Below are positions 2,357 to 55,325 of a stretch of DNA of 64,000 nucleotides, in pieces. Location: positions 3,072,001-3,136,000 of the forward strand of contig OZ245011.1 in NCBI GenBank assembly GCA_965223665.1. The letters run 5' to 3'. This stretch comes from Nitrospinaceae bacterium. GTDB taxonomy: Bacteria; Nitrospinota; Nitrospinia; Nitrospinales; Nitrospinaceae. The notes under the pieces are model-generated. The model was not told where the DNA came from. It saw only the letters and a list, made by a program, of their open reading frames with translations, and did not search any database. Numbering within the stretch: position 1 is the stretch's first letter; each line of letters opens with the position of its first letter. Made by a program: the position numbers and the translations under genes.

Positions 2357-3109
2357 CTAAAAAGCGGTTTTTAATTCATCGATTTCATTAGATGTAAGGG
2401 CTCGGTACAATGTTTTTCGTTGTGAACTGTAATTTAGGATTGCACCTTCAAATTCCCATTGTTTAAAAGCTTCTTTCAGAGTCGAGGGCAATTGGTCTTT
2501 ATCATCCTCTTCGTCTTCACTACTTTTGTTTTGTTGTTTTCCCTTTTCCCACAAAACGCATCCTTCTTGCAAGGCTTTTTTAAGAGAAAAAGAAGTAAAG
2601 TCCATTTCATTTATTTTCTCTTGAATAACTTTTGTCTCCGTTTCAATTCCGGAAATCACAGAACCTTTATGAAATGTCTCCCAGTGCCCATCATAATTGA
2701 GCCGAATAAATTGCGGTTTATTTTGAAAGTCAATTTCTACCAGTAGTAATTTCACCAAATAGGGAGCCCGCATCACTTCTTCAAAGTTTTGTTTCAAAGC
2801 TGGGGCAATTCCAAACTGTAAAAGACGAGTTAAAGTAACGTCTTTTTCTGATCTATTAAAACCTTCCAAGTGGGCTAAGTCCAATAAATTCATTCTTAAT
2901 CGTTCCACATCTGCAGGATGACCCATGCCACCTAAGGCAATACGATCATAAATTTCAAAGACTTTTCCTGGTTGGGGTGTGAATCCGAATATGACGGCGC
3001 CTTCATTAAAGGGAACAGCAATAACAGGCTGTCCTTTTGCTAGTTTTTCTTGAACATAACTATGACGGGTGGAAATTGCTTCCATCCAGCGGAATGGTTC
3101 TTCAAACAT
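2357..3109 (-). CDS. prcA: 20S proteasome alpha subunit
   Basis: KVFEIYDRIALGGMGHPADVERLR, PYLVKLLLVE, RLNYDG motifs of bacterial PrcA; directly follows prcB. Confidence 0.9.
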   Translation of the reverse strand: MFEEPFRWMEAISTRHSYVQEKLAKGQPVIAVPFNEGAVIFGFTPQPGKVFEIYDRIALGGMGHPADVERLRMNLLDLAHLEGFNRSEKDVTLTRLLQFGIAPALKQNFEEVMRAPYLVKLLLVEIDFQNKPQFIRLNYDGHWETFHKGSVISGIETETKVIQEKINEMDFTSFSLKKALQEGCVLWEKGKQQNKSSEDEEDDKDQLPSTLKEAFKQWEFEGAILNYSSQRKTLYRALTSNEIDELKTAF

Positions 3110-3110
3110 A

Positions 3111-3911
3111 TCAATTCCTTTGTACGGACTCGCGGTATAGATCTTCTAATTCAGTTTCAGTAAGAAATCGATATCCTTGGTCGGTAATACTGGCAATGAT
3201 GGGAAATATTTTTTCCTCAGGGCGAGCTTTTCCGGTTGCGGTATCGAATTGGGCTGCTGTTTGTAATAATCGAATAGCTAACTTGCAAGCATCAGGAAAT
3301 TCTCTTTCACTTAATTCCTTTTTCCCCCACAAGTTCTCGTGTTCCATGATTCCACGAATGATGGGGGAACCCGATCCGGTTGCAGTGTGAGTTTTTATTT
3401 CGAACTGTGCTCCTAAAATATCATAAAAGTAAATAAAAGGTTTTTGGGTTGCAATGTCAAATGCGGCAAAGATAGGACTCACCGTACCCACTCCTTGGAT
3501 AGCCAATCCCATGTTCTCCTTCAATAGTTTTGAAAGAGCGCGAATTTTTCCTTCAGTGCTCAAAGGTTGGAGCTGAGATCTGCGATAATATTCAAAATTA
3601 TGGGAAAGGACACGAGCCATTTCAAACGCAGTTGCCGGAACCCCGGCAATAGCCATTAATGAATAATCATCTATGGGAATTACCTTATCGCAATATTCGT
3701 ACATAATTGCATTGCCGGCAGTGGCACGTCGGTCTCCTGCAATTAAAACACCACCTTTAAAGTGAAATGCTAAAACGGTAGTTCCATGGATTAATTCAGA
3801 CTTATTTAATCCATTGGAATGGTCTACAAGGTTTGGCCATTGGTAACCTGATTTTTGCAGCAGGTCGATAAAATCTCCTGGACCGTAGTTTTCAAATGAA
3901 GGTTGGTTCAT
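3111..3911 (-). CDS. prcB: 20S proteasome beta subunit with propeptide
   Basis: Propeptide followed by HG/TTVLA catalytic Thr site, AGDRRATAGN, ATGSGS, DTATG. Confidence 0.95.
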   Translation of the reverse strand: MNQPSFENYGPGDFIDLLQKSGYQWPNLVDHSNGLNKSELIHGTTVLAFHFKGGVLIAGDRRATAGNAIMYEYCDKVIPIDDYSLMAIAGVPATAFEMARVLSHNFEYYRRSQLQPLSTEGKIRALSKLLKENMGLAIQGVGTVSPIFAAFDIATQKPFIYFYDILGAQFEIKTHTATGSGSPIIRGIMEHENLWGKKELSEREFPDACKLAIRLLQTAAQFDTATGKARPEEKIFPIIASITDQGYRFLTETELEDLYRESVQRN

Positions 3912-4084
3912 TGCCCGGTTCGTTGTTTATATTTTTCAGATTGTTTGGGATCCACGCGCTTCATTCGTTTTAAAATATTATCTTTTCCAGGGCGGGATAC
4001 ATCCGGCCGACTGGGTCCACTATCTTTTCGGTCAGGGGTCGAATCTTTTTTTTCCTCCCGCCGCATCGGATCATTCATTTCCAT
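3908..4084 (-). CDS. ubact: UBact (Pup-analogous bacterial ubiquitin-like modifier), 58 aa
   Basis: Not in ORF track. Manual translation: MEMNDPMRREEKKDSTPDRKDSGPSRPDVSRPGKDNILKRMKRVDPKQSEKYKQRTGQ*. AAGGAG SD upstream, start inside dop 3' end, stop overlaps prcB start (ATGA); occupies the pup position. Confidence 0.93.
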   Translation of the reverse strand: MEMNDPMRREEKKDSTPDRKDSGPSRPDVSRPGKDNILKRMKRVDPKQSEKYKQRTGQ

Positions 4085-5568
4085 GCGTATTGCTCCTTAT
4101 AAGAATCAAGGGTTTGATCAACATCTTTTTTTTCGATTACATCTGTTAAATCTAAATATTCACCGTTTAAAAATTCAATTTTGGTCCAATGGATTGATTG
4201 TACATTTTCTTTATCATTTTTTACAAAGTTTCCCCGAATTTTAGCTCGTGTGTTATTCGGAGGCTCTTGAATTGCTTTTTGAACTTCAGACTCTGGGATT
4301 AAGGATAGAATTTCATTTTGCTGCATCAAGCCGTAAAACAGGCCTCGTTCTGGATCTAAATTATGGTATTCCAAATCCAGACTTTGCATAATAGGATCTT
4401 CCCAGTTAACTCCCTCCGATTCCATAAAATCATTAAATATATTTCGCTTTATGGCCCAATCAATCCTGTTTGATAAGCGATCAGGATCTTCCTTTAAATC
4501 ATTTAAAGTCCTTGCCCATTCATCAGTGACCCATTTCCATTCTTCTGCATTTTCAAATAAACTTTTATGTTTAATAGCTTGTTCTAAATATGACTCCTGA
4601 ATTTCCAACGGTGTGATTGTGCCTCCTGTGATTTTCTTTAATGGAATGCTTCCTGAAATATCCCTTGAAACTTGTTTTACATCCCAAACCGGATCTTCCA
4701 ATTCTACAGGGGGAGGCAGTACCTCAGCTCCAATCATAGCTAATACTAAACGAGTTGTTCCTATTTTTAATGCGGTCGCGTAAGGGGACATATTGGCATC
4801 CCCCAGGATTAAATGCAAGCGTCTATATTTTTCCTGATTTGAATGTGGTTCGTCTCTTGTATTGATGATTGGCCGTTTAGTCATGGTTTCAATACTGAGA
4901 ATGGTTTCAACAAAATCTGCTCTTTGAGACAATTGAAATCCCTGGGATAAAGATTCTCCTGGAATTTCAGATCCTACTTTACCTGCTCCGGCAAATAATT
5001 GACGAGTGACTAAGAATGGAACTAAAAATTGAACCCAGTAATCAAATGGCTGTCTACGTGAAATTAAATAATTATCATGAGTCCCATAACTATGACCACT
5101 ATAGTCAGTATTATTCTTAAATACTTGTAGGTAATTACCCCCCAAATCTCTATTTCGTAATCGCACACATTCTGCAATAATCCGCTCACCTGCAAGGTCG
5201 TGTGTCACTAACTCAAAAACAGATTGGCATTCAGGGGTACTGTATTCGGGGTGGGTATGATCATTGTAAAATCGAGCTCCATTTGTTAATACTCTGTCAC
5301 ATTTCATTTCTCGATATGTATAAGGACGAATTTTATCCTGCTCACAAAACTCTTCCTCTTCCTCGTCTTGTGCCAATCGAGAAACTTGAAAACCGCGCAT
5401 ATCTGTATGGGTTCGCTCTTTATCATATGCCCAAGAATCTTGAACACTTTTTAATTCACAGCGACGTAAAAGTTCCATAGATTCTTCAACGGGATCCGAA
5501 GAATCTTGATCTTCCCTGATAATTCCAAACTCAGTTTCTATTCCCATTAAGGGAACAATTTTACTCAT
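4075..5568 (-). CDS. dop: Deamidase/depupylase Dop
   Basis: MGIETEFGI, LTNGARFYNDHTHPEYSTPEC, KNNTD..GHSYGTHDNYL, INTRDEPH, RRLHLILGDANMS. Confidence 0.92.
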   Translation of the reverse strand: MSKIVPLMGIETEFGIIREDQDSSDPVEESMELLRRCELKSVQDSWAYDKERTHTDMRGFQVSRLAQDEEEEEFCEQDKIRPYTYREMKCDRVLTNGARFYNDHTHPEYSTPECQSVFELVTHDLAGERIIAECVRLRNRDLGGNYLQVFKNNTDYSGHSYGTHDNYLISRRQPFDYWVQFLVPFLVTRQLFAGAGKVGSEIPGESLSQGFQLSQRADFVETILSIETMTKRPIINTRDEPHSNQEKYRRLHLILGDANMSPYATALKIGTTRLVLAMIGAEVLPPPVELEDPVWDVKQVSRDISGSIPLKKITGGTITPLEIQESYLEQAIKHKSLFENAEEWKWVTDEWARTLNDLKEDPDRLSNRIDWAIKRNIFNDFMESEGVNWEDPIMQSLDLEYHNLDPERGLFYGLMQQNEILSLIPESEVQKAIQEPPNNTRAKIRGNFVKNDKENVQSIHWTKIEFLNGEYLDLTDVIEKKDVDQTLDSYKEQYAWK

Positions 5569-7184
5569 ATAATCGACCGATTGATGGTATGAGAAGCAGC
5601 TTGATCTGAATCATTTGGACGACGTAATCTAGCAACATTTTTAGGATCAAAGTCCAATAATTGGAGCCAATCTTCCATATTTGAATCTGTAGGAAGGACA
5701 CTATTTTCCTTAAACTCTACTTTCAGAGCATTCATTAAATCATCTACCTTTAAAATTAGAGGTTCGCCTTTGATTGCCCTTTCAATGGCGATTTCTTTGG
5801 CTCGCAATACAATGCCCTCTAAAATAGCTCCGGATATAAAATCTTTCCAAAATAGTTTTTTAAGCTCTCCGCTGCGCATAGTCAAAATGACTGCTTCCTG
5901 TTCAGGATTTCGAGAAAATAATTGGTCGAGGAAGGGTTGAATAAATTCTTGTATATCTTCTTTTTCAAAGGGAAGACTTTCTTTAAGGTAAACTTTAAGA
6001 ATCGATTCACAATCTTCTCTATTAGGGCGGCTTACTTTAATTTTGCGGTCGATTCTGCCCGGTCGCAGAATTGCAGGATCAATTAGGTCAGGCCTGTTGG
6101 TTGCTAATATCACAACAGTATCTTGTATGGACTCAATTCCATCCATTTCAGCACAAAACATTGGAACTAGCGTATTTGAAATATTATTTCCGCGCCAGGC
6201 CTGCCGGGTACCTAAGACGGACTCCGCCTCATCAATAAAAATAAAGGGCATGTGGCCTTTTTCTTTATAATCTTTAGCTCGTTTAAAAATTTCTCTAACT
6301 TTACGTTCGGATTCTCCCAACCACATATTGAGAATTTCCGGACCCTTGACATGAATAAATTGCCCTTGTAAATCGCTATGTTTCCCCCCTTTTTCTTTAA
6401 GTTTGGCAATAATATCTGAAAGTATGGCTTTCCCTATCAAAGTTTTGCCACAACCTGGGGGTCCATAAAATAAGAATCCCTTGGGCATCCGGTATTCCAT
6501 TTTGTCGAGAATTTCTTGGTGAAGGATAGGATATTCAATAACCTTGCGGACTTCTTCAATGACATTGTCCTGACCTCCAACGCGGTCCCAAGTGATAGGA
6601 TTGAACTCATCCTCAACAGCAGACTTAGACTGTCTTTTGGGTAATCGCTTAAGAATGACTTTTTGGGTAGGATCAAGGATAACCTCATCTCCCTCCCGCA
6701 TGGGATCTTCTTTAAGCTCATCACATACCTGAACCATTGACTCAGAATTACTACCTGCAGAAACTAACCATTGACCATCGGCTAGTCGACAAACTATTTT
6801 TGCAAGGGGGCCTTGATCAGGACGCGGCAGTTTAGCAATGGCAACAAACCCTTCATTTACTGCAACTTGATCTCCTACCTTTAAAGGCTCATTTTCTATA
6901 ATTTCAGGAGAAACTGCTGCTTGATACTCGGTTCCTGCTACATTCAACCGAATTAAATCATCTTCTCCAGGGCCTAAAACCGTTCCGATCCGATGAGCGG
7001 GTAATTTTAGCTTACGGATCGTTTCTTCAAGGGTTTTCATTTTTAGGGCATACTGCTGTGCGGCCTGTTGGGATTGAAGCAGGGCATCCCTTATATCAAA
7101 AATTTTTTCTTGGAGTTCAGGTTTGTCAGACGTTTCATCTAATATCTGATCTATTAATTCTATAATATGGGTCGGATCTCCCAT
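5565..7184 (-). CDS. arc: Proteasome-associated AAA ATPase (ARC/Mpa)
   Basis: N-terminal coiled coil, two OB-like segments, Walker A GPPGCGKT, KGPEILNMWLGESER, Walker B IFIDEAE, ATNRPDLIDPAILRPGRIDRKI; ATGA overlap with dop. Confidence 0.93.
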   Translation of the reverse strand: MGDPTHIIELIDQILDETSDKPELQEKIFDIRDALLQSQQAAQQYALKMKTLEETIRKLKLPAHRIGTVLGPGEDDLIRLNVAGTEYQAAVSPEIIENEPLKVGDQVAVNEGFVAIAKLPRPDQGPLAKIVCRLADGQWLVSAGSNSESMVQVCDELKEDPMREGDEVILDPTQKVILKRLPKRQSKSAVEDEFNPITWDRVGGQDNVIEEVRKVIEYPILHQEILDKMEYRMPKGFLFYGPPGCGKTLIGKAILSDIIAKLKEKGGKHSDLQGQFIHVKGPEILNMWLGESERKVREIFKRAKDYKEKGHMPFIFIDEAESVLGTRQAWRGNNISNTLVPMFCAEMDGIESIQDTVVILATNRPDLIDPAILRPGRIDRKIKVSRPNREDCESILKVYLKESLPFEKEDIQEFIQPFLDQLFSRNPEQEAVILTMRSGELKKLFWKDFISGAILEGIVLRAKEIAIERAIKGEPLILKVDDLMNALKVEFKENSVLPTDSNMEDWLQLLDFDPKNVARLRRPNDSDQAASHTINRSII

Positions 7185-7480: not shown

Positions 7481-8773
7481 ATGAAGGTCAATAATAAATC
7501 GCTGATTGATAAGTGTATCATTAGCTTCAGTCATGACCAATATGAGTCACGGGTAGCCGCAGATCGATTTTCCATTGAAAAGGCCCAAAAAGAAATAGCG
7601 CAAAATAAAAAAGGAATCAGTCATTTAATTTTACGAGCGCGGGATGACAAAATTGATCGACTAAAATTCCTGTTTCTTATTCATGGTATTCCCCTCATGT
7701 GTTACTCCTTGGGAAATCTTATTTTATCTAGTCTTAAAGAAATTGTTGTTGTTGGTTCGCAAGAAGTAAAAACCATATTGGATTTATTCCTTCAATGTAT
7801 AGATACAAAAGGAAAAAAAATTCATTTTGTTCATGAAGACCCGGATAATTTAATGCTGATTAACACCATGATATTAGGAAGAAATGTATTATCACTTTCT
7901 CCTAATGAATTGGTCCTTTTCCAACCCGGCGACCTTCCTTTTATGTTCAATTTGGAAAAAGTAATTCAAGACAAAGATATTAAGAATCACAATCTCATTC
8001 TTTGGTTGAATTCAAGGGAAGAAATGTTTCCAAGATACCATGAAGATCCGAATAGAGAGTTTGTTCAAAGGAATTATCATTATCGAATTATTGATGAAAA
8101 GACGAATCGATTGCACGATTTAAAAGAACCGAACGTTTATCCTATTAATTTAGGTGCTATTGAAGAAGATATCATTGAGTTGTTACATCAAACTCGAAAA
8201 GATGGGAAAATTATATATGCCGGATTGAACAAAGCTTTGAAACAACCGGCTCGAATGTTACGGTTGTTACCTATTTTGGCAAATCATTTTAGACATTTTG
8301 AATCAGATTTAAAAAAATTCAGGATGAATGATGATTATAAATTTGGAATGCACAGAAAAAACTTTAATCAAGGAGCATCGATTTTGCTGGATACCAAATG
8401 TGTTGCCAAATTAAATGATGATCCTGCCTATGTTTCGGATGTAGATGCCTTGGAAGATTGGGAAGACTTTGAGTCATTGATTTCCTTTGCAAAAGACTTA
8501 CATGGGGAGGAGGGATTATGTTGGGTTCACCCATTTGGGAAAGAATTATTAAAGTTTAAAAAGGAAGCCATGCCCCAGCTTAAAAAACATATTCCAATGT
8601 ATAAAAACTTTTCTGAATATTTAGGGAATATTTATCGTTCTTTAGAAATGAAATACATTCCTTTTAATAGTAAAGAGCAATTCGATGTTCCTCACAAAAA
8701 TCAACATTCCATCGAAATGGCTTACCAATGGTACTCAGACCATACACGAAATTTTATGAGGAAATCGGCTTAA
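7481..8773 (+). CDS. Divergent nucleotidyltransferase-fold (MobA/NTP_transf_3-like) protein
   Basis: KFLFLIHGIPLMCYSL...KEIVVVG, LFQPGDLPF, DVDALED motifs; canonical LAAG motif not seen. Confidence 0.6.
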   Translation: MKVNNKSLIDKCIISFSHDQYESRVAADRFSIEKAQKEIAQNKKGISHLILRARDDKIDRLKFLFLIHGIPLMCYSLGNLILSSLKEIVVVGSQEVKTILDLFLQCIDTKGKKIHFVHEDPDNLMLINTMILGRNVLSLSPNELVLFQPGDLPFMFNLEKVIQDKDIKNHNLILWLNSREEMFPRYHEDPNREFVQRNYHYRIIDEKTNRLHDLKEPNVYPINLGAIEEDIIELLHQTRKDGKIIYAGLNKALKQPARMLRLLPILANHFRHFESDLKKFRMNDDYKFGMHRKNFNQGASILLDTKCVAKLNDDPAYVSDVDALEDWEDFESLISFAKDLHGEEGLCWVHPFGKELLKFKKEAMPQLKKHIPMYKNFSEYLGNIYRSLEMKYIPFNSKEQFDVPHKNQHSIEMAYQWYSDHTRNFMRKSA

Positions 8774-8828
8774 AGAAACCTGTTTGTATTAGTGAGTTGA
8801 TGGTCAAGAACTTGATGGCGAGATATTA

Positions 8829-9866
8829 ATGGAATTTTTGAAAAACATTCAAAAAATGATGATGCGGCTTAAACCTGGTTTTGCTTCTTCATCAGTATTT
8901 GCCACTCCCAAACATGTTGCGGTGCGTCCCCGGTTTTTTGAAATTGCTCAAAGTGCCAATTTAAAACCTTTTGTATTATTATCTATTGCTGTCCATCTTA
9001 TTGTAATAATCCTGCATTTATATGTCCCCCTCGATTCTGAAAAAAAGGAGGCTTCTCCACCTATCAAAGTTAAATATGTTCCGCCTCCCAAAGAAGAAAA
9101 CAAACCATCGACATTAATTGATGCCCCTAAACCCAAAAAAATTGAGAAACCGAGGTCGACCGAGTTATTGTCAAGTTTTGATAGCCGAGCGCATTCCAAC
9201 CGAAAGCCGTCCAGTAAAAAAGTCTATAGAAATAAAAAAACTATTGTTCCTAAGGTAAGTGGAATGACTCCGATTCCAAGAAAGAAAATAGAGATTCCTC
9301 AGAAAAAATATTATCCACCTCCTAAAAAGAAAACTATTAAAAAAGAATTTAAGCAGGCTAAAACAGGATTTATTACTTCCCCTCCACAAAAGGAGATTCC
9401 CAAGAAAAAGCCAATAACTAAAACAGTTCCAGGTGGAACGATGTCATTCTTGGATGGCTTTGACCCAGAAAAATATGCATCTTTAGATACGAAATCTCCA
9501 GAGGACCTGTTTCAGGATGACGACCAACCGATTTCATTGGATACAAAAGAAGAAAAGTATGCGAGTTATTTTGCCCGCATTAAACACCAAATAGAACGGG
9601 TTTGGGTTTATCCGGATCAAGCAGCCCGAAAGGGAATCAGTGGAAAATTATCTTTAAAATTTCGTATTAGCAGAGATGGAAATCTATTGGAAGTAAGATT
9701 AGTTGATTCATCTGGTTCCAACCTATTAGATGATGCGGCAATTAATGCTGTCAAAGGGGCTTCTCCCTATTATCCATTCCCTGTGACAATCGAAAGAGAC
9801 GATCTTTCCATTCTCGCTACCTTTATCTACAGTCCTTCATATAAAGCCCAATACCAAGCGCGCTAA
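8829..9866 (+). CDS. TonB family energy transducer
   Basis: TM segment with SIAVH motif, Pro/Lys-rich linker, C-terminal WVYPDQAARKGISG...FRISRDG...SSGSNLLDDAA. Confidence 0.88.
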   Translation: MEFLKNIQKMMMRLKPGFASSSVFATPKHVAVRPRFFEIAQSANLKPFVLLSIAVHLIVIILHLYVPLDSEKKEASPPIKVKYVPPPKEENKPSTLIDAPKPKKIEKPRSTELLSSFDSRAHSNRKPSSKKVYRNKKTIVPKVSGMTPIPRKKIEIPQKKYYPPPKKKTIKKEFKQAKTGFITSPPQKEIPKKKPITKTVPGGTMSFLDGFDPEKYASLDTKSPEDLFQDDDQPISLDTKEEKYASYFARIKHQIERVWVYPDQAARKGISGKLSLKFRISRDGNLLEVRLVDSSGSNLLDDAAINAVKGASPYYPFPVTIERDDLSILATFIYSPSYKAQYQAR

Positions 9867-10260
9867 AAATCTTTTTACGGTTACAGATGCAGTTAATTGT
9901 ACAAATAAAATTTGGTTCTCATTTGCTTTTTAAGGATTGAAAAAGAAGGAAAAACGATTTTTTAGAATTCCTGCTTGGAAAGAGTTTACTTTTTTAGTTC
10001 GTGAAAATGATTTATTCTCCGTTAGAAGAGCCGAAAAAAGAAAAAAATTCGAACCAACTATTTGAAATCTTAAATGAATGTAACCAGGCACTCAATGATT
10101 CAACGACCTTTTGCGAGAAAGGTTGAAAGACTACAGGCCAGTGTTAAGACTGGTGCTTGCGCAACGTTTACCTGTTTTCAGCCAATAGCTGTTGTTAAGG
10201 TAGGCAGATAAATAAAAAAAAGTGTAGTATCCTATATTCCAAAATAATAGAATCCGGTGC

Positions 10261-11046: not shown

Positions 11047-11085
11047 CATTTTGCCACCAAATGAAAGGCGAAATCCTGCATGGAG

Positions 11086-11169
11086 TGCCGAAGAGAGGAT
11101 TTGAACCTCCACGGGATCGCTCCCACATGAACCTGAATCATGCGTGTCTACCAATTCCACCACTTCGGC
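11086..11169 (-). tRNA. tRNA-Leu(CAG)
   Basis: GCCGAAGTGGTGGAATTGGTAGACACG-CATGA TTCAGGT TCATG-long variable arm-GGAGGTTCAAATCCTC-TCTTCGGCA. Confidence 0.95.
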
Positions 11170-28434: not shown

Positions 28435-28510
28435 TGGCTGGGGCGGGAGGACTCGAACCTCCGAATGCATGAACCAAAATCATGTGTCTTAGCCACTTGA
28501 CGACGCCCCA
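28435..28510 (-). tRNA. tRNA-Gln(TTG)
   Basis: TGGGGCGTCGTCAAGTGGCTAAGACA-CATGA TTTTGGT TCATG-...GGTTCGAGTCC-TCCCGCCCCAGCCA; conserved ispE-tRNA-Gln-prs synteny. Confidence 0.96.
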
Positions 28511-42223: not shown

Positions 42224-42295
42224 AGGCACGTAGCTCAGGGGTAGAGTACTTGCTTGACATGCAAGGGGTCGGCGGTTCGAAACCGCCCGTGCCTA
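42224..42295 (+). tRNA. tRNA-Val(GAC)
   Basis: AGGCACGTAGCTCAGGGGTAGAGTA-CTTGC TTGACAT GCAAG-GGGTC-GGCGGTTCGAAACCGCC-CGTGCCTA; CCA not encoded. Confidence 0.96.

Positions 42296-55242: not shown

Positions 55243-55325
<83 letters not shown>

Follow-up and report, generated by a model that had tools for sequence, protein, structure and literature searches.

A UBact-family modifier gene within a predicted Pup-like proteasome operon of a Nitrospinaceae bacterium

The ubact gene and its operon

The DNA analysed is a stretch of 64,000 nt from a Nitrospinaceae bacterium (assembly GCA_965223665.1, contig OZ245011.1, positions 3,072,001–3,136,000 of the forward strand), designated here the window; coordinates are counted from its first nucleotide. 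Six genes of the minus strand, in the order mpa-dop-ubact-prcB-prcA-pafA, are closely packed, each overlapping the next or lying only a few bases from it (Table 1). The stop codon of the mpa-like gene overlaps the dop start by 4 nt, the 5′ end of ubact shares 10 nt with the dop stop region, and the ubact TGA overlaps the prcB ATG (CAATGA), the latter arrangement being kept in most relatives. Between positions 400 and 7600 the number of promoter-like sites (23 versus 20.1 ± 4.6 in shuffled sequences) and of terminator-like sites (8 versus 6.6 ± 2.9) was at chance level. A 430-aa ORF is found on the plus strand (7481–8773), divergent from the operon, and matches nothing in Pfam or NCBIfam at E ≤ 0.01. 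The window also carries the tRNA genes Leu-CAG (11085–11169), Gln-TTG (28435–28510), Val-GAC (42224–42295) and Leu-TAG (55243–55325).

Table 1. Position and basis of assignment of the operon features in the window.
Feature	Coordinates	Strand	Basis
mpa/arc-like proteasomal AAA ATPase, 539 aa	5565..7184	-	TIGR03689 pup_AAA; Pfam AAA and both proteasomal ATPase OB domains
dop ortholog, 497 aa, candidate deamidase/deconjugase	4075..5568	-	solved Dop structures; TIGR03688
Shine-Dalgarno sequence AAGGAG, within the 3′ end of dop	4093..4098	-	8 nt upstream of the UBact ATG
ubact, 58 aa, ends RTGQ	3908..4084	-	PF20513 and NF033388 matches; pS/pN; single copy
Basic conserved C-terminal half, residues 33–58, predicted enzyme-binding segment	3911..3988	-	alignment and Dop-UBact model
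CAA codon, terminal Gln58, proposed site of deamidation and isopeptide ligation	3911..3913	-	Q/E in homologs
prcB, 20S beta subunit with N-terminal propeptide	3111..3911	-	TIGR03690; Pfam Proteasome
prcA, divergent 20S alpha subunit	2357..3109	-	TIGR03691; Pfam Proteasome
pafA-like ligase paralog, 485 aa	890..2347	-	solved PafA structures; TIGR03686

The ubact ORF extends from the ATG at 4084–4082 to the TGA at 3910–3908 and its 58-aa product is MEMNDPMRREEKKDSTPDRKDSGPSRPDVSRPGKDNILKRMKRVDPKQSEKYKQRTGQ. The AAGGAG sequence and its spacing to the ATG are kept in all 27 relatives' loci that have upstream sequence. Ten of the 120 UBact homologs listed, out of 150 matches (see below), are called as proteins of 56 aa, two residues shorter. 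Initiation at the first ATG is likelier than at the ATG of the third codon because of the Shine-Dalgarno spacing and because some relatives have no second methionine (L029, starting by MDLNDP, and L009). The gene is present in a single copy in the genome (4.35 Mb, 98.6% complete).

Residues 1–34 of the protein include five prolines, nine K+R and eight D+E, while residues 35–58 hold eight K+R versus three D+E. The complete protein has a pI of 9.99 and a net charge of +5.5, and the residues preceding Gln58 are Thr-Gly; there is no Gly-Gly. A previous sequence-only reading of this DNA had proposed a 58-codon ORF preceded by AAGGAG and ending in RTGQ, whose product would be basic, devoid of a diglycine and rich in proline and charged residues in its N-terminal half. 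All these features are present as it described them, on the minus strand, which it had left unstated. The N-terminal half is likely disordered, judging from its composition and from the mean partner pLDDT of 57–59 in the complex model presented below. Comparison with 23 equally long relatives gives a median pS of 0.91 versus a median pN of 0.117, and the C-terminal half is tighter (pN 0.087); most invariant columns of the alignment of relatives fall in residues 33–58. By this measure the frame is under strong purifying selection and the 58-codon ORF is a genuine gene.

The mpa-like product scores 389 bits with TIGR03689, below the curated cut-off of 504.75. PrcB reaches 170 bits with TIGR03690, also below the curated value (191.9), and 106.8 bits with Pfam Proteasome. 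Its translation has Thr, Asp17 and Lys33 in place, counted from the start of the TTVLAF sequence, which we take to be the catalytic residues. PrcA gives 52.6 bits with TIGR03691 versus a cut-off of 139.05, and 23.5 bits with Pfam Proteasome versus 22.4.

Family membership and distribution

UBact is a known ubiquitin-like modifier that takes the role of Pup in several Gram-negative phyla; it was reportedly described by Lehmann, Udasin, Livneh and Ciechanover in BBRC in 2017 (PMID 28087277). The 58-aa protein matches PF20513 (UBact) with 73.3 bits (cut-off 27.8, E = 1.3e-20) and NF033388 (UBact equivalog) with 73.3 bits as well (cut-off 35), both alignments reaching the last column of the model. 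No other Pfam family, Pup included, matched it up to E = 10, and Pup chains were absent from the 9 PDB matches found at E ≤ 10 by HMMER with a profile built from UBact and its relatives. The RTGQ C-terminus has the family pattern R-[TS]-G-[QE], whereas the Gly-Gly-Gln/Glu end of Pup is replaced by Thr-Gly-Gln, and the gene is surrounded by dop/pafA-type enzymes, a proteasomal ATPase and 20S subunits. By these comparisons the protein belongs to the UBact family, of which it is an ordinary member. The sequence-only reading had assigned the ORF to UBact and not to Pup, which these scores bear out, but it had overstated the novelty of the gene: RTGQ is the commonest end of the family and Nitrospinota records are already named UBact. 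Public annotation already names the family in Pfam, NCBIfam and Nitrospinota records.

A word-indexed search with the UBact protein gave 150 matches. The 120 listed ones all contain PF20513, with 74–91% identity to the 58-aa protein; the named ones among them (74–88% identical) are recorded as “ubiquitin-like protein UBact” or as hypothetical proteins of Nitrospina, Nitrospinaceae or Nitrospinota, and the UBact of Nitrospina gracilis 3/211 is 80% identical. When 1.84 billion cluster representatives were searched exhaustively with a profile, 149 proteins were found at E ≤ 0.001. An R[TS]G[QE] end is present in 121 of these (RTGQ in 66, RTGE in 35, RSGE in 11 and RSGQ in 9) and RTAE, RVGE and RAGE are found once each, while the remaining 25 are fragments, read-throughs or unrelated proteins. 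An intact R-x-[GA]-[QE] end is therefore found in 124 representatives, 75 finishing with Q and 49 with E. As the commonest ending of the family, RTGQ is not peculiar to the copy studied here.

At least 587 stretches in species-representative genomes match the UBact C-terminal pattern, and for at least 564 the encoded product was verified to be a relative. The best 80 of these loci belong to Nitrospinota, Nitrospirota (including Candidatus Nitrospira defluvii), Latescibacterota, Gemmatimonadetes and Armatimonadota, the first in rank being from a Nitrospinaceae MAG of the same genus whose UBact is 98% identical. Of 120 genomes of the phylum Nitrospinota, 94 have UBact and 96 a Dop-family match. 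Among these genomes both are limited to the four families of a single order and do not occur in the remaining families of the phylum. A Dop fragment without UBact occurs in G034 and G055, which are 70% and 87% complete. One genome (G061), with a single Dop-family match, apparently had UBact without Dop and was discarded as a candidate, since its UBact lies 55 nt from a contig end.

A proteasome-type gene set surrounds UBact in all of the best 80 loci, genes being missing only at contig ends. Dop is found upstream of UBact in 74 of them and the six misses are all at contig ends. The order mpa-dop-prcA-ubact-prcB-pafA, with prcA between dop and ubact, is found in 11 of the 80, all from Nitrospinota (L063, L064, L065, L068–L071, L073, L074, L076 and L078). 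Open frames upstream of ubact that could suggest Dop-UBact fusions (404 aa in L012, 257 aa in L015) were rejected because they correspond to an out-of-frame reading of dop, which ends in its own frame. In two other loci a ligase-fold match is split into pieces, with a frameshift or an assembly error as possible origin: the PafA match of L077 (two adjacent pieces, 8713–10145) and the Dop match of L127 (two pieces, 5471–6908). L077 is also the sole locus with an RTGE end among the 28 Nitrospinota-like ones.

The two ligase-fold paralogs and the modelled Dop-UBact complex

The product of 4075–5568 scores 347 bits with solved Dop structures versus 252 with PafA, and 424.2 bits with TIGR03688 (cut-off 492.3) versus 377 with TIGR03686, both values being below the respective cut-offs; the TIGR03688 equivalog cut-off is reached in none of the 120 genomes of the phylum. 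It has about 39 N-terminal residues more than PafA, corresponding to the Dop-loop stretch, in which W46 aligns with the conserved Dop-loop Trp. Its catalytic Asp lies in the sequence N-D-H-T-H-P-E-Y-S-T-P, where D103 and H104 follow each other without insertion and are succeeded by S110-T111-P112. The product of 890–2347 aligns over its full length with solved PafA (232 bits) and over a partial stretch with Dop (224 bits), and scores 325.3 bits with TIGR03686 (cut-off 551.3) versus 304 with TIGR03688, again both below the cut-offs, as are all relatives of the two enzymes in the 120 genomes of the phylum. This paralog has no Dop-loop; its catalytic Asp is followed by an additional residue (L-D-M-G) and its alpha-loop opens with a His. 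It carries A-S-P at the place of A-T-A in PafA and of S-T-P in Dop.

Positions that discriminate Dop from PafA are given in Table 1 of PMC7947786, and the Dop states also in PMC8599861. They are Dop-like in 4075–5568, and in 890–2347 those near the catalytic Asp are for the most part of the PafA type. The alpha-loop of the latter departs from this description: only the His is PafA-like out of nine PafA-type positions, the other eight differing from the actinobacterial consensus of the same table. Judged from scores and diagnostic residues, 4075–5568 is a Dop ortholog, closer to Dop than to PafA, while 890–2347 appears PafA-like, being closer to PafA than to Dop by a narrow margin.

The structure model of Dop in complex with UBact obtained a score of 0.88, versus 0.00 for the best of three controls. 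Among solved complexes 58 of 80 attain the score mark that it passed, as do 2 of 110 mismatched pairs, counts that hold only roughly here because custom alignments (19 and 24 rows) were used. Three runs share at least 72% of the contacts, with a partner pLDDT of at least 57, and the confident contacts of UBact are restricted to residues 33–58. On the Dop side they involve E13 of the GhExE motif, D103–H106 of the catalytic loop, and Q67, D68, E70, E71 and F74. The last five belong to an acidic run of the Dop-loop (Dop residues 62–82; 5365–5385, minus strand; LAQDEEEEEFCEQD) that touches the basic tail of UBact in the model; 19 Nitrospinota Dop sequences all share L65, A66, Q67, D68, E70, E71, F74, C75 and D78. 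The modelled interface counts 13 acidic and one basic among 51 residues of Dop, and eight basic and two acidic among 24 residues of UBact, which fits a charge complementarity between tag and groove, opposite in sign to that of the acidic Pup. Since complexes of Dop with Pup have been solved (7OXY and others), the pass of the model may reflect likeness to them and does not establish binding by this UBact copy.

Proposed conjugation pathway and comparison with Pup tagging

In the Pup system, as presented in PMC7947786 and PMC3511204, Dop deamidates PupQ to PupE, and PafA phosphorylates its gamma-carboxylate and joins it to a lysine. According to the same articles PafA needs PupE and does not accept PupQ, and no conjugates are made when dop or pafA is absent from a strain. 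A corresponding route can be proposed for UBact. The gene would be translated as the third one of the coupled mpa-dop-ubact-prcB-prcA-pafA operon, and the last ~26 basic residues of its product would fold onto the groove in which Dop and PafA bind the tag. Dop would hydrolyse the side-chain amide of Gln58 to yield Glu58 (+0.98 Da), after which the PafA paralog, with ATP, would phosphorylate the Glu58 gamma-carboxylate and join it to a lysine of the target protein. The Mpa-like ATPase would then engage the Pro/charge-rich N-terminal half of UBact and feed the target to the 20S proteasome, while Dop might also strip the tag. This scheme fits the presence of orthologs of both enzymes in the operon, the exchange of Q and E at the end of UBact and the Dop-UBact model. 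We estimate at about 0.8 the probability that 3908–4084 encodes a UBact acting in this Pup-like manner within a coupled operon together with Dop, PafA, Mpa and the 20S subunits. In the literature searched, UBact comes up only where the 2017 description is cited, and no experimental study of its conjugation, its deamidation or the degradation it would direct was found.

The least improbable alternative, which we still consider unlikely, is that UBact is conjugated but serves mainly as a regulatory or non-degradative mark, or that it is a non-covalent adaptor of the ATPase, instead of a tag for delivery to the proteasome. A penultimate Tyr is required for docking of Mpa and PAN to the 20S particle. 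The C-terminus of the Mpa-like ATPase (5565–5600, minus strand) reads ...NRSII, and RS[IMV]I ends the protein in 17 of 18 relatives (L033–L050; the exception, L041, is read in another frame). The absence of the penultimate-Tyr motif means that 20S docking may differ, and together with the strong divergence of prcA (TIGR03691 score above) it is what speaks for a non-degradative function. The other components of the locus argue in the opposite direction: ubact is translationally coupled to prcB by the CAATGA overlap, it is embedded among proteasome genes in every one of the best 80 loci, and the PrcB catalytic residues appear intact.

Among the 120 UBact homologs listed out of 150, 113 end with Q (RTGQ) and seven with E (RTGE), while the best 80 loci are split into 45 Q and 35 E. 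The switch between the two residues is seen between UBact pairs that are 86% identical, as well as across phyla. Such an alternation would be expected with Glu as the reactive form and Gln as its precursor. A Dop-type gene lies upstream of 41 of the 45 Q-ending and of 33 of the 35 E-ending UBacts of the best 80 loci. Because Dop is kept equally beside the two forms, comparative data cannot show that the Q form needs it; its presence beside E-ending tags matches the second role of Dop, deconjugation. The proposal that Dop deamidates Gln58 before ligation by PafA, and that dop would hence be needed for conjugation, is supported by analogy with the Pup system.

It is conceivable instead that UBact-Gln is used directly, through an acyl-phosphate or acyl intermediate that one of the two ligase-fold enzymes would form and transfer to the target lysine, neither a distinct deamidation step nor free UBact-Glu being obligatory. 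An engineered Dop/PafA hybrid pupylates from PupQ and ATP in a “mixed Dop-PafA reaction” according to PMC7947786, so that this chemistry is within reach of the fold; the PafA-like alpha-loop of the locus deviates from the actinobacterial consensus at eight of nine positions, and Q is the majority ending of UBact. The same article describes natural PafA and Dop as devoid of such promiscuity. Moreover, two distinct paralogs are conserved in nearly all loci, and E-ending UBacts are common and closely related to the Q-ending ones, a pattern anticipated if Glu is the ligation-competent residue. We regard direct use of Gln as improbable, somewhat more so than a non-degradative role. A further view, in which the ORF arose by chance or is not translated and merely spans the junction of dop and prcB, could invoke its shortness (58 codons); it has a negligible probability and is refuted for practical purposes by the conservation pattern, namely the HMM E-value of 1.3e-20, the pS of 0.91 versus pN of 0.117, its presence in 94 of the 120 genomes of the phylum and the at least 564 confirmed relative-encoding stretches in species-representative genomes.

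Within the Pup-like reading, a more specific and tentative idea is that the UBact tag is recognised with charges inverted relative to Pup, its basic C-terminal segment lying in an acidic groove under a cap formed by the invariant poly-Glu stretch of the Dop-loop, and that the ATPase, with its conserved RSII end, docks to the 20S particle without a penultimate Tyr. We hold this version for possible, although doubtful: it builds on one structure model and on sequence conservation. If true, the UBact system would have a mechanism of its own and form a separate branch of Pup-like tagging, not a simple copy of it.

As a matter of annotation these results have little weight, the gene being labelled ubact and the two paralogs dop and pafA. 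Their interest lies in the whole UBact family, which is without a published experiment in the literature searched. Among the nitrite oxidisers of the sea, Nitrospinota are the main group. Arg55 does not vary among the close UBact homologs, and each of the 124 intact endings of the family has an Arg just before its final three residues. Trypsin is thus predicted to leave TGE on the modified lysine, as deduced in the sequence-only reading from the Arg at -4; the remnant adds +287.11 Da, and the arithmetic of this proposal holds. The Q-ending tag and its invariant Arg at -4 provide a clean mass-spectrometric handle, applicable family-wide, that could help to establish whether Pup-like tagging does take place in Gram-negative bacteria.

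Compared to the UBact family, the 58-aa protein shares the YKQRTGQ C-terminus, the basic C-terminal half and the position of its gene between dop and prcB. It has K in the Y[KR]QR motif, where R is found in most other phyla, and an N-terminal part shorter than in many Nitrospirota copies. With the Pup of Actinobacteria it has in common the small size, the terminal Gln/Glu and the gene neighbourhood (mpa, dop, prcBA, pafA), but there is no detectable sequence similarity between the two proteins. Pup is acidic, in contrast to UBact with its pI of 9.99. Pup ends with GGQ and the UBact of this locus with TGQ, so that the tryptic remnants differ (GGE, +243.09 Da, for Pup versus TGE for UBact). The last 27 residues of Pup bind PafA, and the last ~26 of UBact are predicted to bind the Dop groove. 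The two enzymes of the operon align over nearly their full length with actinobacterial Dop (4B0R, 7OXY) and PafA (4B0T, 4BJR) and share the catalytic Asp loop, while the Dop-loop with its conserved Trp is found only in the Dop ortholog. The latter differs from actinobacterial Dop by the invariant acidic run QDEEE.EF in this loop, and the alpha-loop of the PafA-like paralog is unlike that of actinobacterial PafA. In the model the Dop groove is acidic and faces a basic tag, unlike the situation in actinobacterial Dop and PafA.
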